Positions 53,269 through 59,070 of a stretch of DNA of 64,000 nt are shown in pieces. The translations under genes and the position numbers were made by a program. Numbering within the stretch: the stretch's first letter is position 1; each line of letters starts with the position of its first letter. The DNA lies in assembly GCA_004297735.1 (NCBI GenBank), contig SCTI01000002.1:160-64159 (forward strand), read 5' to 3'. The notes beneath the pieces were generated by a model that was not told the DNA's origin, ran no database searches, and saw only the letters and a list, made by a program, of their open reading frames with translations. This DNA is from Patescibacteria group bacterium. Its GTDB lineage: Bacteria; Patescibacteriota; Saccharimonadia; UBA4664; SCTI01.

Positions 53269-55002
53269 ATGAGTGAAAGTGATAAAACTGTGACTCTCGC
53301 TCAAGCGCCCAAGAAGGCGCTGGTGTATCTCCGTGTGTCCTCGGCCCAGCAGGCCGAGACCGACTACGACGTTGAGGGCTTCTCGATCCCAGCTCAGCGC
53401 GAGGCCTGCAGGCGCCGTGCCGCGGAGCTAGAAGCTGAGGTCGAAGCAGACTTCGTCGATCGCGGCGAGTCGGCCAGAAGCGCTGACCGCCCAGCCCTGC
53501 AACGGATGCTGGCCAGGCTTGAAGCCGGCGGCATCGATTACGTCATCGTCCACAAGCTGGATCGACTGGCGCGTAACCGGGCCGACGACGTCGAGATCGC
53601 GATGCGGATCAAGGCAGGCGGTGCGGTGCTGGTCTCCGTCACCGAGAACATCGATGAGACGCCATCCGGGATGTTGGTTCACGGAATCATGTCCTCGATC
53701 GCCGAGTTCTATAGCCGCAACCTGGCCTCAGAGATCGTCAAAGGCTCCCGGCAGAAGGCCAAGAACGGCGGCACGCTGACCCGGGCGCCCATTGGGTACC
53801 TGAACGTGCGCGAGTTCGTAGATGGCCGCGAGATCCGCACTATCGGTATCGACGAGGAACGAGCGCCGTACGTGCAGCTGGCGTTCGAGCTCTACGCCAC
53901 CGGCAACTACTCGCTGTCGCAGCTCTCCACGCTGCTCGAACACCAGGGGCTGCGTTCCCGGGCTACTCGCCGGCGGCCGAGCGTCCCGGTCACGGCCAGC
54001 AAGCTTCAGGCGATTCTGCGCAACCCGTACTACAAGGGCATCGTCTCCTACCAAGGCGAGAGCTTCCCCGGTCGGCATCAGCCGCTCGTTGACGACGATC
54101 TGTTTGAGCGAGTCGGCCAAGTCCTCTCCGGCAAGAAGCTCAGTGGCGAGCGGGACCGCAAGCACCGTCACTACCTCAAGGGCTCGCTCTACTGCGGCGA
54201 GTGCGGCCGCCGTCTGACGTTCAGTCGCAACACCGGCAATGGTGGCTCCTACGACTACTTCGTCTGCAGTGGCAAGCAGCGCAAGACCTGCAGCCAGGGA
54301 TATCTGCGCACCGATCACATCGAGGCTGAGGTCGAGAAGCTCTACGCGACAGTCCAGCTGACGACCAAGCAGCGCGCAGAGATCCGCCGCCTGGTTGAGA
54401 CACACCTCGATGCCATGCGGGCGGTGACCGACGCCGAAGCCAACAAAGCCACGGCTGAGATCACAAAGCTGCTGCGCGAAGAACGCAAGCTGCTTGAGCT
54501 GTACTACGCAGACCTCGTGAGCCGCGAGGCCTACGCCGAAGAGACCAAGCGGATTGCCGACGGCAAGCGGGCCGCCCAGCGACGTATTGACGAAGCTTCA
54601 GGAACTACACAGGAGCTACTCGAGGCACTCAACCGTGCGCTGGAGATGACAACCAACGCGCACAAGACCTACCTGATGTCCGACTTCACCGGACGCCGCC
54701 TAATGAACCAAATGTTCTTCAAGCGGATCGAGGTCAAGGCCGACGAGATCGATGACGTCAAGCTCTCCGACCCCTACGCCCAGCTACTGGCCCAGGACCT
54801 GCTGGCAGAAGCCGAGGAAGCCGCCAGAGAGGCCGCCGCTACCGGCGTCTGGGAGGCCCCGGAACTTCAGGCCGAACCGGCCACAGGGCCCGGAAACCAA
54901 AGAACCCTCGGCCTTTCTTTGGCCGAGGGTTCCATTAGTACTGCTGTCATGGAGCTGTGGGGATTCGAACCCCAAGCACGAAGATTATCGGTCCTTTGCT
55001 AG
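53269..55002 (+). CDS. Large serine recombinase (resolvase/invertase N-domain + recombinase domain + zinc ribbon + coiled coil)
   Basis: LVYLRVSSAQQ catalytic-Ser motif; CGECGRRL...C..C zinc ribbon; 577 aa; last about 17 codons read into the tRNA-like target sequence; SD AAAGGAGGTG. Confidence 0.85.
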   Translation: MSESDKTVTLAQAPKKALVYLRVSSAQQAETDYDVEGFSIPAQREACRRRAAELEAEVEADFVDRGESARSADRPALQRMLARLEAGGIDYVIVHKLDRLARNRADDVEIAMRIKAGGAVLVSVTENIDETPSGMLVHGIMSSIAEFYSRNLASEIVKGSRQKAKNGGTLTRAPIGYLNVREFVDGREIRTIGIDEERAPYVQLAFELYATGNYSLSQLSTLLEHQGLRSRATRRRPSVPVTASKLQAILRNPYYKGIVSYQGESFPGRHQPLVDDDLFERVGQVLSGKKLSGERDRKHRHYLKGSLYCGECGRRLTFSRNTGNGGSYDYFVCSGKQRKTCSQGYLRTDHIEAEVEKLYATVQLTTKQRAEIRRLVETHLDAMRAVTDAEANKATAEITKLLREERKLLELYYADLVSREAYAEETKRIADGKRAAQRRIDEASGTTQELLEALNRALEMTTNAHKTYLMSDFTGRRLMNQMFFKRIEVKADEIDDVKLSDPYAQLLAQDLLAEAEEAAREAAATGVWEAPELQAEPATGPGNQRTLGLSLAEGSISTAVMELWGFEPQARRLSVLC

Positions 55003-55185: not shown

Positions 55186-58137
55186 TTAGCTCTTCTTCAA
55201 CGAGATTATCAGCTCTTCCCCATCAACTTTGGTGTGCTGCGTATCCTCAAAGTGATCCGAACCGCTCGTCACCTTCTCCGCCAAAACCTCTTGGGCAATT
55301 GTCGCCTGATGCTCTTTGAGGGCCTCGCTGAGATCTTTTGCTTCACCGACTACGTCAAAGTTGAGCTCGATTCGGTCATCAACTTGGAGACCAGCCCGTT
55401 TACGCAAGTTCTGAACATGGCGAACCACATCGCGCATGATGCCCTCGCGCTTGAGTTCGGGAGTGATAGTGGTGTTAATCTCTACACCTGATTTGTACTC
55501 ACCAGACGCCCTCTCGAACTTGACCTCCTTAACGTTCAGCTCTTCTTTAGCGATATTTAATAAACTTTCTTCCAATGGATCTGTCCACTGCAGCGTAGCC
55601 ATACTGAGTGGCTGACGAACCTTGATACCCGTGCCTCTTGCCCTGAGCTCGAGCCCCTGGGTAATGAGCCTTCGTAGAACGGTCATGCGTTCTAATAAAT
55701 CCTCATCAATCTCCCCGGTCTCCGGCCAGTCGCTCAGATGAACCGAAGCTGGAACGTCCATACCGGCAGTCAGCTCGCGCCACAGCTTATCGGACACAAA
55801 TGGACTCCACGGCGCCAGTAGCTGCGCGATTCGCGCCATGGCGTAATGCAGCGTGGCGTAGGCGGCCTGCTTGTCGCCATCATCCTCACTCTTCCAAAAG
55901 CGGCGGCGACTGCGGCGCACGTACCAGTTAGACAGATCATCGATCAGCTCGCGAATTGGACGGGTCGCCTTAGCGATTTGGTAGGCATCGGCCTGCTTGG
56001 TCGATTCGGCAATGGTTTGGTTGAGGCGAGCGAGTAGCCACTGGTCCAAAATGTTGTCGCTGTCTGGCTGGGTTAGAGTTTTTGGCGGCTGCCAGTTGTC
56101 TACCTCGGCGTAGGTACTAAAGAAGCTATACACGTTCCAGAGTCGAAGGAAAACGTTGCGCGCGGTCTCCTGCACGGCCTCGGACGAAAAACGAACATCC
56201 TCACCGGCCACAACCGGGCTCGACATCAAGAAGAAGCGCAGACTATCGGCACCCTGCGTACTAAAGAGCTCGGCTGGATCGGGGTAATTTTTTAATCGTT
56301 TACTCAGCTTTTTGCCATCGGCGGCCAGGACGAGCCCGTTCACGACCACGTTTTTATAGGCCGGCTTATCCATTAGGGCGGTCCCGAGTACGTGTAGGGT
56401 GTAGAACCAGCCGCGAGTCTGGTCCAGACCTTCGGCAATAAACTCAGCCGGGAAGGCCTTGGCGAAGCCATCTTTATGCTCAAACGGATAGTGATCCTGG
56501 GCGTATGGCATCGCCCCGCTCTCAAACCAACAGTCAAACACCTCTTCGGTGCGTTTGTAGGTTTTACCATCGCGTTTAATAACGATTTCATCAATGCCGG
56601 GACGGTGCAGATCAAACTCTTTATCGTGGCCACTGAGCTCACGGAGTTCGTCGAGACTACTAATGACGATGATGTCCTCAGTATCCTCCACGTTCACCCA
56701 AATTGGTAGCGGCGCGCCCCAGAACCGGTTGCGGCTAAAGTTCCAGTCACGCGCGTCGGCCAGCCAGTTACCAAAGCGACCTTGTTTAATGTGATCTGGC
56801 ACCCAGTTAACCTGGTTGTTGTTGGCGACCAGTTTTTCGCGCAGATCGGTTACCTTAATAAACCAGCTTGGAGTCGCAAAGTACATCAGCGGAGTCTCAC
56901 AGCGCCAGCAGAACGGGTAGGTGTGCTCAAAGGTTTCGGCGGCGAAGATGCGGCCCTTGGCGGTCAGGTCGGCGATAATGTGTGGGTCGGCGTCCTTAAA
57001 GAAGGTGCCAACGATTGATTCCAGGCCGTCAACTTGCTTGAGAGCTTCAACCATGACGCCAAATCCGTCCACGCTTTCGATGAGCGGCAGATTTTCGCGC
57101 TTACCAAGCTCTAGGTCGGTCTCGCCATAGCGCGGCGCGACATGGAGGACCCCGGTGCCGTCTTCAAGGCTAACCGAGTCATCGGCGTAGACTTGATGCG
57201 CATTATTAAGCTGGGCTTCGTCGGTTACTGCGAGCTTATACAGCGGCAGATACCGCTTGCCCACCAAATCGCTTCCTTTGTGCTCTGCGACCACCTTGTA
57301 GTCGGCTTTGCGCAGCTCCAGCTCGCTTAGGCGCTTCTTAGCCAAGATGAGTCGCTCGCCTCGCTTCCACTCCTCACCTTCACCCGAATTGGTCAGCTCA
57401 ACCGTGACGTATTCAGCTTTTACGTCAACCGCCAGAGCAGCGTTAGCTGGCAATGTCCACGGCGTAGTGGTCCAGGCAAGCAGCGAGGTGTTTTCATCAT
57501 CTTTTAATTGGAACTTAACGTAAACGCTGGGGTCGGGCACGTTATCTTTGTAGTTTTGATTAACCTCAAAGTTACTTAAGGTGGTGGCGCAACGCGGACA
57601 GTACGGGCTAGAACGAAAACCGCGGTAAACCAATCCTTTTTCGTGCAGCTGACTCAACACCCACCAGACGCTTTCAATGTAGTTATCGTCCAGGGTGGCA
57701 TAGGAGTTTTCTTGATCGCTCCAGCGACCCAGGCGAGTCATAAACTCTTCCCACTCATTCTTATACTTAAAGACGCTGGCGCGGGCAGCTTCATTAAACT
57801 TATCTACACCAAGCTCCAGAATCTGGCGCTTGCTGGTTATGCCTAGCTGTTTTTCAACCTCATTTTCAACCGGTAAACCATGGGTGTCCCAGCCGTTGCG
57901 GCGCGGGACATAGTAGCCGCGCATGGTTTTATAGCGGGTGATTGAATCTTTTTCGGTCAGAGCCACCACGTGACCATAGTGCGGCAAGCCGTTGGCAAAT
58001 GGCGGGCCGTCATAAAAGCTGAATCGATCGCTGCCCTGACGCTGCTCAACGCTTTGTTCGAAGGTTTTTTCATCCTTCCAAGTCTTGAGCATCTCGGCTT
58101 CGAAGGCGGGAAAGTCGGCTGGCTGGGCTTTTTTCAT
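55186..58137 (-). CDS. ileS: Isoleucine--tRNA ligase (type 2, eukaryote-like)
   Basis: 983 aa; GPPFANGLPHYGH (HIGH) and KLSKR (KMSKS-like); size and N-terminus typical of type-2 IleRS. Confidence 0.9.
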   Translation of the reverse strand: MKKAQPADFPAFEAEMLKTWKDEKTFEQSVEQRQGSDRFSFYDGPPFANGLPHYGHVVALTEKDSITRYKTMRGYYVPRRNGWDTHGLPVENEVEKQLGITSKRQILELGVDKFNEAARASVFKYKNEWEEFMTRLGRWSDQENSYATLDDNYIESVWWVLSQLHEKGLVYRGFRSSPYCPRCATTLSNFEVNQNYKDNVPDPSVYVKFQLKDDENTSLLAWTTTPWTLPANAALAVDVKAEYVTVELTNSGEGEEWKRGERLILAKKRLSELELRKADYKVVAEHKGSDLVGKRYLPLYKLAVTDEAQLNNAHQVYADDSVSLEDGTGVLHVAPRYGETDLELGKRENLPLIESVDGFGVMVEALKQVDGLESIVGTFFKDADPHIIADLTAKGRIFAAETFEHTYPFCWRCETPLMYFATPSWFIKVTDLREKLVANNNQVNWVPDHIKQGRFGNWLADARDWNFSRNRFWGAPLPIWVNVEDTEDIIVISSLDELRELSGHDKEFDLHRPGIDEIVIKRDGKTYKRTEEVFDCWFESGAMPYAQDHYPFEHKDGFAKAFPAEFIAEGLDQTRGWFYTLHVLGTALMDKPAYKNVVVNGLVLAADGKKLSKRLKNYPDPAELFSTQGADSLRFFLMSSPVVAGEDVRFSSEAVQETARNVFLRLWNVYSFFSTYAEVDNWQPPKTLTQPDSDNILDQWLLARLNQTIAESTKQADAYQIAKATRPIRELIDDLSNWYVRRSRRRFWKSEDDGDKQAAYATLHYAMARIAQLLAPWSPFVSDKLWRELTAGMDVPASVHLSDWPETGEIDEDLLERMTVLRRLITQGLELRARGTGIKVRQPLSMATLQWTDPLEESLLNIAKEELNVKEVKFERASGEYKSGVEINTTITPELKREGIMRDVVRHVQNLRKRAGLQVDDRIELNFDVVGEAKDLSEALKEHQATIAQEVLAEKVTSGSDHFEDTQHTKVDGEELIISLKKS

Positions 58138-58420
58138 GGGGTCTCCTGTAGGTCCGACCTAGCAAAGGGTCGGACCTCTTATCTAGTGGGTAATCTTTTG
58201 TTAATCTAGCTTATTCGAGAAAGGTCGGACCCTTTGCTAGGTCGGACCCTAAACACACAAAACCTCTCGTCGGCAGGAGTCCAATGTGGACGGTTCCATC
58301 CTGCTTCCCGAGAGGGCACTTAATTCGCACTTTTTACGCCGTACTCGCGTCTGGTTCTACTTGGTCTAAACCGTTCTTCCAGCTGCTTCGCGGGTGATAA
58401 CCGCTCATGAACCGAGGTTC
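58138..58420 (-). promoter_or_regulatory. ileS leader: T-box riboswitch candidate of the ultrashort-Stem-I type plus 26-bp inverted repeat next to the SD
   Basis: minus sense: GCGG-UUAUCAC-CCGC hairpin with AUC(A) in terminal loop; antiterminator-like GCAGGA-[UGGAACC]-GUCCA-cau-UGGAC-UCCUGC (rc of 58273-58304); then 25/26-bp IR 58151-58176 vs 58223-58248 ending 13 nt before AGGAGA SD. Confidence 0.5.
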
Positions 58421-58460
58421 AATGCATGTGTAATTGTACCCTTACAATACCGGTATTTTA

Positions 58461-58721
58461 TCAGCCTAGCAAGCTGTTGGCGCCCTGGACCAACAGCTGC
58501 ATTAGCAAAAAAGCGACCAGCGGAGCAAAATCAATCATCTGTGTCTTTGGCAGAATCATCCGAATTGGTATTAATACTGGCTCGGTTAAATCAACCAATA
58601 GCGCGCCAAAACCGCCCTTGGGGTTTGGGTCGATCCAGCTCATTAATACGCGCGCCAATAAAACGATATTAAAAATAAAGACAAATAAATTAATAAAATT
58701 TAAAGAAAACTCGGCTAGCAT
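58461..58721 (-). CDS. yggT: YggT (YlmG/Ycf19) family membrane protein
   Basis: 86 aa, two TM helices, typical YggT sequence; precedes ileS as in Gram-positive division clusters. Confidence 0.75.
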   Translation of the reverse strand: MLAEFSLNFINLFVFIFNIVLLARVLMSWIDPNPKGGFGALLVDLTEPVLIPIRMILPKTQMIDFAPLVAFLLMQLLVQGANSLLG

Positions 58722-58725
58722 TGGC

Positions 58726-59070
58726 TTATAAACCGCCTCGGTAGGCGTCGGCCACTCGCTGTGGAGCCGGTAGCTCGCTCTCCCATTTTGCGGTCAAGGA
58801 GCCATCGCCATCGGTCACTAGTATCGCCGGTCGCTGCATTACCCCATACAGCTCGGCCAAAGCGATGCCGTCGCGGCTGTCCGCGTCAAGCAAATCAACC
58901 GTAATACCCTCTTCACGCTCAAGTTTGCGCACCAAGTAGTCAATGTGGCGATCAGCCGGGGTACTTTTAGTAAACAGCAACGTAACTTTCATGCTTACAA
59001 GTATACCAAATATAAAAGCGCTTTCGCGCCCCGAGTCATTTGTGACCCGAGGCGCTAACCAGTAGCTCAT
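58726..59070 (-). CDS. Hypothetical protein with thioredoxin/glutaredoxin-like fold lacking CxxC (alternative start MKVTLLF at 58992)
   Basis: Strong SD GGAGGAAT before ATG at 59070 overlapping upstream stop (ATGA coupling); MKVTLLFTKSTPAD..ITVDLLDADSRDGIALAELYGVMQRPAILVTDGDG resembles Grx beta-alpha-beta-alpha pattern without cysteines. Confidence 0.4.
   Translation of the reverse strand: MSYWLAPRVTNDSGRESAFIFGILVSMKVTLLFTKSTPADRHIDYLVRKLEREEGITVDLLDADSRDGIALAELYGVMQRPAILVTDGDGSLTAKWESELPAPQRVADAYRGGL

Follow-up and report, generated by a model that had tools for sequence, protein, structure and literature searches.

A probable tRNA-Ile T-box riboswitch of a divergent subfamily in the ileS leader of a Saccharibacteria genome

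We found that the leader of ileS, the gene for isoleucyl-tRNA synthetase, in a 64-kb stretch of contig SCTI01000002.1 is probably a T-box riboswitch for tRNA-Ile. The whole stretch is called the window here, and all positions refer to it unless a locus is named. It comes from a genome of Saccharibacteria (TM7, candidate phyla radiation [CPR]). The leader lies at 58404-58251 on the minus strand. In the reading that we favor, it belongs to a divergent T-box subfamily in which a nested terminator competes with Stem III, and a large inverted repeat that follows is separate from the switch. The case rests on comparison of orthologous leaders and on predicted folds.

The window leader folds far better than shuffled sequence (z = -6.9). 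It contains the following elements.

58408..58421, minus strand: 5' hairpin UGAACC-UCG-GUUCA, directly 5' of Stem I; read from the sequence and present in the minimum free energy (MFE) fold.
58404-58390, minus strand: ultrashort Stem I, GCGG-UUAUCAC-CCGC, with 4 bp and a 7-nt terminal loop; specifier AUC at 58398-58396, conserved purine A at 58395.
58349..58385, minus strand: Stem II, with a lower helix CUGG/CCAG, S-turn-like purines GAAGAA/AGUAGAA and an upper helix CGGU..ACC(A); from RNAalifold and the alignment of Rfam family RF00230 to the orthologue L003.
58349-58337, minus strand: Stem IIA hairpin CGC-GAGUACG-GCG, whose loop GUAC pairs with the IIB partner GUGC at 58330-58327; from compensatory variants.
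58307..58325, minus strand: linker purines AAUUAAGUG at 58325-58317 and Stem III, CCC-UCUC-GGG, at 58316-58307, then AA; read from the sequence.
58304-58299 and 58278-58273, minus strand: helix A1 of the tRNA 3'-end sensor, GCAGGA/UCCUGC; from covariation.
58298-58292, minus strand: T-box bulge UGGAACC, 7 nt, with the variable base N = A at 58295; UGG-ACC is invariant.
58291-58279, minus strand: helix A2, GUCCA-CAU-UGGAC; from covariation.
58269-58263, minus strand: strand X, CGAGAGG, candidate 3' strand of the terminator, which pairs with CCUCUCG (the loop and 3' side of Stem III).
58262-58251, minus strand: U-tract UUUUGUGUGUUU, directly after X and before the inverted repeat; read from the sequence.
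58147-58142 and 58137-58135, minus strand: Shine-Dalgarno (SD) sequence AGGAGA, with GGAG at 58146-58143, and the ATG of ileS; read from the sequence.
55186..58137, minus strand: ileS, the regulated gene, 983 aa, with Pfam domains tRNA-synt_1, Anticodon_1 and DUF5915.

An earlier, sequence-only reading of the window had picked out the Stem I hairpin with AUC and A in a 7-nt loop, and the A1/UGGNACC/A2 sensor at 58304-58273. Both are present, and both are conserved and covary in orthologues, as described below. That reading contained neither Stem II, the IIA/B pseudoknot, Stem III, strand X nor the U-tract, and it did not recognize the repeat as an insertion. The SD that it named is present as well; AGGAGA ends 4 nt before the ATG at 58137.

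The strongest support for the T-box comes from orthologous leaders. Twenty-seven Saccharibacteria ileS leaders have identical modules in identical order. We analyzed covariation in 26 aligned leaders with RNAalifold and with pair counts, using 500 shuffles and slid pairing partners as controls. RNAalifold recovered Stem I, both halves of Stem II, A1 and A2. In the alignment 94.1% of paired cells were able to pair, compared to 74% in shuffles and 31-44% with slid partners. Double-sided changes were found at 20 of the 23 pairs, and none of the 500 shuffles attained the observed values. The specifier AUC was invariant in the Stem I loop (26/26 leaders), and the base after it was A or G. The stem around it covaried (GCGG/CCGC, GUGG/CCAC, AUGG/CCAU), and Stem II had compensatory changes at all 8 pairs called by RNAalifold. 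UGG-ACC was also invariant, and all six A1 pairs were kept in 27/27 leaders by way of nine different helix sequences. Variants of the IIA/B pseudoknot, read by eye within the close clade and not formally counted, were likewise compensatory: GUAC:GUGC in the window, GUAC:GUAC in L082, CCAC:GUGG in L083 and L086, GCAC:GUGU in L088 and GCAC:GUGC in L090. In addition, the window sequence AAGUG-CCCUCUCGGG-AA fits the published RRRxG-Stem III-AA motif, as defined in a review of T-boxes (PMC7583486).

One orthologue connects these leaders to the known family. RF00230 aligned with L003 at 22.8 bits (E = 0.0027 in a 301-nt search), which is far below the gathering score of 93. The alignment nevertheless ran module by module through Stem II (GAA...AGUAG), Stem IIA (CG...CGUUA), GuG-Stem III-AA and AGGGUGGUACCGC. 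A covariance model that we built from our own alignment, R1, gave the window 152.7 bits and also found leaders that were not in its seed. One was in another member of the Saccharibacteria (L021) and two were in Peregrinibacteria (L067 and L061). About half of the Saccharibacteria ileS loci that we fetched are without any leader.

The leaders found by R1 differ in arrangement. The Peregrinibacteria ileS leaders (L067 2790-2961 and L061 2265-2438) scored 79 and 52 bits against R1. Their Stem I is ultrashort and has CUAUCAC as its loop, but their terminator is of the canonical kind and draws on the A1' strand. The leader subfamily would accordingly span at least two CPR phyla and two types of expression platform, judging by these matches. 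In L021 (1-146) the T-box precedes ileS by 1.2 kb, and a small open reading frame (ORF) resembling a membrane protein and a further coding stretch lie downstream of it. This leader apparently controls an operon that ends in ileS.

The leaders are most similar to the ultrashort ileS T-boxes of Actinobacteria, known from Mycobacterium smegmatis, M. tuberculosis and Nocardia farcinica (Sherwood et al. 2015, summarised in PMC7583486; bioRxiv 10.1101/2023.02.28.530422). We made this comparison against published descriptions rather than sequences. Both groups are located upstream of ileS and have a short Stem I with AUC and a purine in its terminal loop. Both lack the distal, elbow-binding module (IDTM), and both have Stem II with an S-turn, a IIA/B pseudoknot, Stem III and A1/UGGNACC/A2. 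They differ in host (Saccharibacteria and Peregrinibacteria instead of Actinobacteria), in the bulge (N = A rather than U in the clade of the window) and in the platform, which here is a hairpin and U-tract with apparent termination and there is an SD sequestrator. With canonical transcriptional T-boxes (RF00230; Bacillus subtilis tyrS and glyQS) the leaders share the 7-nt UGGNACC bulge, RRRxG-Stem III-AA, and a terminator-like OFF structure with a U-tract that is thermodynamically favored over the ON structure. In contrast to the long canonical Stem I, with its K-turn, internal specifier loop and distal T-loops, Stem I is 4 bp here. The 5' strand of the terminator also differs, as it is made of Stem III's loop and 3' side and encloses an intact A1/A2.

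We infer from modeled folds that the leader is a transcriptional switch and that Stem III is the element exchanged. The variable region of Stem III and X could not be brought into register by MAFFT, so we tested the outer helix sequence by sequence and not by columns. In 26 of the 27 leaders the MFE fold of the discriminator region was one nested hairpin, comprising an outer helix between X and Stem III, an internal loop, A1, the 7-nt bulge and A2. A U-rich tract followed X in every leader. When X was blocked in silico, a local Stem III hairpin formed in 22/27 leaders. The terminator state was more stable than the X-blocked state by 1.4-13 kcal/mol (-25.6 vs -17.0 in the window). Duplexes between X and the cognate Stem III region had a mean of -12.0 kcal/mol, compared to -5.9 for non-cognate combinations, and none of 20000 permutations was as good. 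Against shuffled X the median z was -2.5. Stem III and X also change together: the window has CCUCUCG/CGAGAGG, L088 has CCACUUGG/CCAGGUGG, L015 has CCUCUCUUGG/CCAAGAGAGG and L076 has GUCGUUACUUUUG/CAAAAGUGACGAC.

The terminator differs from the canonical type in what it uses. No downstream complement to the A1' or A2' strands was found in the Saccharibacteria leaders, and 26 of the 27 keep A1/A2 intact; that is, the 5' strand of the terminator does not come from the 3' strands of A1 and A2. The canonical, overlapping terminator was seen in the Peregrinibacteria leaders L067 and L061 and in L074 from Sysuimicrobiota. In members with a long Stem III, X is a near copy of the Stem III 5' strand. 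By its sequence this is a classic design for strand swapping, in which the loop of Stem III could serve as toehold. The hairpin and U-tract resemble an intrinsic terminator, with Stem III and not A1/A2 as its competitor.

The switch would work as follows. Uncharged tRNA-Ile would pair with AUC through its anticodon, GAU, and with UGGN through its 3' end, NCCA. The docked tRNA complex would keep the small local Stem III and the purines on either side of it in place. Without docked tRNA, X (CGAGAGG) would invade Stem III at its loop and 3' side, closing a long hairpin around an intact A1/A2. The hairpin would end at the U-tract and cause termination before ileS. The exchange would be between Stem III and the nested terminator, whereas the canonical design uses the 3' halves of A1 and A2 for the terminator.

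Several observations weigh against this reading. Transcriptional T-boxes are said in a 2020 review to require, in general, a long Stem I with an elbow-binding motif for fast capture of tRNA, and the ultrashort class has been described as translational only. At gathering RF00230 had no match to the window leader, and relaxing the cutoff to E<=10 in searches of 601 and 201 nt gave none either; of 16 orthologous loci, none had a T-box at Rfam gathering. A simple promoter and terminator scan of 58000-58800 found no consensus promoter and did not call the nested hairpin. Stem III of the window is just 3 bp, at -3.7 kcal/mol. No local Stem III hairpin forms in L001, L004, L006, L012 or L028 to oppose the terminator. 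L044 (2793-2986) has a free-standing terminator, CGCCGCAA/UUGCGGUG with a U-tract, after an intact Stem III/A1/A2, and no competing pairing is evident. Finally, with the usual base A73 of tRNA-Ile, UGGA gives an A-A mismatch. The sequence-only reading had looked to RF00230 and to orthologous leaders for a decision, and the two gave opposite answers: no Rfam match for the window, and a bulge and helices that covary in 30+ orthologous leaders. We accept the T-box despite the failed Rfam test because the 26 aligned leaders covary strongly.

We considered translational control of the actinobacterial kind, in which tRNA would govern access to the SD and the U-rich tract would simply belong to the site where ribosomes bind. 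So far, a specifier in the terminal loop of an ultrashort Stem I has been described only for translational ileS T-boxes, and the sequence-only reading had likened the leader to these. Moreover, the SD of the window, ACAGGAGACC, pairs in the MFE fold with GGUUUUGUGU in the U-tract region, and the probability that GGAG is unpaired is about 0.1-0.3. This pairing is weak (G-U and A-U) and uncoupled from the helices that sense tRNA, and predicted SD accessibility ranges between 0.09 and 0.79 in close relatives. In orthologues the SD is 5-15 nt downstream of the hairpin and U-tract and is not complementary to A1'/A2' or to X. The conserved A1'/A2'-SD complementarity by which the ultrashort class sequesters its SD was not found. 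A G+C-rich helix followed by 8-12 U-rich nt, the signature of intrinsic termination, comes after the sensor in all 27+ leaders. We consider translational control quite unlikely, and the likeness to the actinobacterial type does not extend to the platform.

The base N of the bulge is unusual in the window, and this bears on how intact the riboswitch is. The sequence-only reading had flagged N = A as an anomaly. It is real and is fixed in nine related leaders: those of the window, L082, L083, L085, L086, L087, L088, L089 and L090 (IleS of the relatives is 75-100% identical). N is C in L001, and it is U in 18 other Saccharibacteria leaders and in L021, L067 and L061. Bacterial tRNA-Ile normally has A73, and N = A would require U73. 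N = A suggests that tRNA-Ile has U73 or else that an A-A mismatch is tolerated. ARAGORN found no tRNA-Ile gene, nor any other tRNA gene, in the window or in the 58 loci scanned of 90. In the majority of T-boxes, according to TBDB, N and the discriminator base form a Watson-Crick pair.

It is conceivable that the T-box of the window is a decaying relic, uncoupled from ileS by the mismatch at N and by an insertion of 100 nt. The mismatch of UGGA with A73, the absence of an Rfam match for the window and the many Saccharibacteria ileS genes without a leader would agree with decay. Three of the four lineages with N = A are without the insert, though, and in the window the score against the family model is high and the terminator and U-tract are intact. 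In addition, N = A and every helix are kept in all nine leaders. A at N appears to have been retained over a long period by a riboswitch that is otherwise intact, because 4-fold degenerate sites are just 38-56% identical between the sublineages (window-L086, window-L088 and L086-L088). A relic is very improbable.

The switch does not include the inverted repeat that lies between the U-tract and the SD. This repeat is a separate, single-copy, clade-specific insert, with the following parts.

58151..58248, minus strand: lineage-specific insert of about 100 nt, with four GGTCNGACC palindromes and an AU-rich core.
58240-58248, 58223-58231, 58168-58176 and 58151-58159: the GGTCNGACC palindromes, from a motif count.
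58209-58190, minus strand: AU-rich core CUAGAUUAACAAAAGAUUAC.

The sequence-only reading had described a 25/26-bp repeat around a 46-nt loop. The repeat is there, but the arms (58151-58177 and 58222-58248) are 27 nt long, 96% complementary and 44 nt apart. The motif GGTCSGACC occurs 5 times in the window, compared to 0.45 expected, and 4 of the 5 are inside the insert; the arm sequence is unique in the window. In most family members 55-115 nt separate the bulge from the start codon. The distance in the window is about 155 nt, because of the ~100 nt inserted between the U-tract and the SD.

The insert is missing from 20+ orthologous leaders, including the closest relatives (L082-L085) and L088. 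A homologous, diverged insert is present at the equivalent place in L086, L087 and L089. Four GGTCNGACC palindromes, the AU-rich core CTAGATTAACAAAAGATTAC and AGAT-R-AGAGGTC are conserved between both forms of the insert; the paired palindromes are separated by spacers that vary in both sequence and length. A perfect 27-bp repeat is seen only in the window, and RNAs of the L086 type form two local hairpins around an open core. On the IleS tree the insert is found in two lineages, the window and the L086 group, and the sister lineages of both are without it, which would imply two losses, two gains or transfer. Between the window and L086, 4-fold sites are 48% identical, near saturation, and the core (20/20) and the palindromes are kept. 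These conserved blocks argue for constraint, because neutral sites between the carriers are near saturation.

We searched for the insert elsewhere. The core had one exact match in JGI metagenomes, in an ileS leader at the same position and single in its 282-kb contig, and 0 matches in IMG/VR. That is, no dispersed copies of the core were found in these collections. No other cluster of GGTCNGACC sites was found in the window or in the 90 loci, and we dropped the idea of a regulon defined by these sites.

The sequence-only reading had also suggested that the repeat could act as a sequestrator or antisequestrator of the SD. We rejected this. The insert contains no SD and is absent from most family members; the MFE fold pairs the SD with the U-tract region instead, deletion of the insert in silico leaves that pairing unchanged, and leaders of the L086 type have an open SD.

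Our first choice for the insert, held tentatively, is a structured RNA module for processing or stability of the read-through mRNA, in which hairpins flank an AU-rich single strand. By size, the 27-bp stem of the window is long enough for RNase III, which cleaves a 23-bp stem in a T-box leader of Staphylococcus aureus (PMC7913692). Like that leader, the met T-box leader, the window has a long G+C-rich duplex between sensor and coding region that is of a size for RNase III and could separate leader from mRNA. In S. aureus the duplex is itself the terminator, whereas the one here forms a separate insert that comes after the terminator. The diverged insert of the relatives, moreover, has only local hairpins of 9-15 bp, and cutting by RNase III is putative here. 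Two sets of features fit other readings as well: the patchy distribution, perfect 27-bp arms and TA flanks also fit a mobile element, and the half-sites, which are strictly conserved around a free central base, are also in line with binding of a protein.

Small palindromic miniature inverted-repeat transposable elements (MITEs), such as pneumococcal RUP and neisserial Correia elements, are known from compact genomes. The insert might be a selfish element of this kind or another palindromic insertion, without a regulatory role and tolerated since it folds on itself in the spacer. We regard such an insertion, selfish or domesticated, as rather unlikely, second in rank to the RNA module. The insert of the window resembles RUP and Correia elements in its size (about 100 bp, here about 98 bp), its terminal repeats of about 26-27 bp, perfect-like and 27 bp here, its TA on both flanks and its hairpin in a 5' untranslated region. 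The patchy distribution and the unaffected SD pairing in silico also agree with such an insertion, as do loops replaced wholesale between L086 and L087, whose 4-fold sites are 98% identical. It differs from those MITEs in being single copy, in one locus in two sublineages, and in having a core and sub-repeats conserved beyond neutral expectation. Its only other find in JGI metagenomes was at the same ileS locus, with none in IMG/VR, and the copy of the L086 type has neither TA flanks nor a long terminal repeat, its terminal symmetry being ~10 bp.

The four palindromes could also be DNA operators for a dimeric or tetrameric regulator, giving ileS a second, protein-based control through a roadblock or an internal promoter in the core. 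The sequence-only reading had raised this. It may still apply, but we found no positive support for it and place it third, as unlikely. The half-sites GGTC/GACC are identical in 15/16 sites from four genomes, the central base and the spacers (6-8 nt) are free, and the sites are laid out two and two around an AT-rich core, all of which an operator could explain. Against it, no second cluster of sites was seen in the window or the 90 loci, and no regulator gene separates neighborhoods with the element from those without it. Adjacent sites are 16-17 bp apart, center to center, and would be on opposite faces of the helix. The core has no promoter like that for sigma-70: poor hexamers only were found on both strands, and we rejected an internal promoter there. 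Stems of the T-box are equally invariant over an equal distance, so that a conserved stem sequence alone is no argument for protein binding.

The spacer between terminator and start codon has been remodelled in every sublineage of the clade of the window. In L086 (2071-2166) and L087 (2888-2983) the loop of the first pair of palindromes is wholly different (CGTCTG vs TCGGAG), and there are 2 differences in the second loop. Only the loops have changed in this way, at a rate far above the neutral one. In L088 (6475-6530) and L090 (1300-1381) the spacer holds two or three direct copies of UUAAUGAA. These create mini upstream ORFs (uORFs) encoding MNF*, MKL* and MKI*, and L090 also has an in-frame upstream AUG. 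We rejected attenuation through a leader peptide in L088 and L090, as the uORFs are not conserved.

The leader is within the 323-nt spacer between yggT (58461-58721, minus strand), which is upstream of ileS, and ileS. The closest relatives of the window IleRS are from metagenome-assembled genomes of Saccharimonadia, at 72% identity among GTDB representatives and up to 89% among metagenome assemblies. The close clade retains the 5' hairpin before Stem I (as GGACU/GGUUC in L088), and there is a hairpin at the equivalent place in L003 and L007. It is possible that it is an accessory element that marks or stabilizes the 5' end of the leader. A -10-like TACAAT is present at 58438-58433, but its position is not conserved in relatives, and we claim no promoter. 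No Rfam family reached its gathering threshold anywhere in the window, and permissive Rfam scans of the window gave solely spurious, miRNA-like matches on the inverted repeat.

Downstream of ileS the window encodes a large serine recombinase of 577 aa (Resolvase, Recombinase and Zn_ribbon_recom domains; 53269-55002, plus strand), with small ORFs to about 52700. Together with two small ORFs, the recombinase separates ileS from ftsW. In L082, L085, L086, L088 and L090, ftsW-rplU directly follows ileS, and in L083 two other genes intervene. The recombinase stretch looks like the remnant of an integrated mobile element of ~3 kb. A link between the recombinase and the inverted repeat was rejected, since L086, L087 and L089 carry the insert without a recombinase.

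Taken as a whole, the leaders might form an uncatalogued subclass of T-box that combines an ultrashort Stem I with a co-transcriptional terminator and signals through Stem III. X would displace the 5' strand of Stem III, with the Stem III loop as toehold and A1/A2 folded in both states; UGGA would read a tRNA-Ile with U73 (G73 in L001); and the insert would add a second regulatory layer. We offer this combination as a speculative proposal. Our search of the available literature found no paper that links T-boxes with Saccharibacteria, Patescibacteria, TM7 or the candidate phyla radiation, and we could not find an earlier description of a T-box subfamily in CPR bacteria. The translational Ile model of TBDB was run in Actinobacteria only.

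T-boxes are thought to be mainly confined to Firmicutes, Actinobacteria, Chloroflexi and Deinococcus-Thermus. T-boxes in two CPR lineages would widen this range and bear on the origin of the riboswitch within Terrabacteria. Catalogues built with RF00230, or with a translational Ile model run in Actinobacteria only, would miss this family of CPR leaders, and R1 can be used to annotate them. The family challenges the rule that transcriptional T-boxes require a long Stem I that binds the tRNA elbow. It may also allow the role lately defined for Stem III to be tested in a natural system, since the element swapped here is apparently Stem III and not A1/A2. The UGGA and UGGC variants lead to a checkable prediction about the discriminator bases of tRNA-Ile in reduced genomes.

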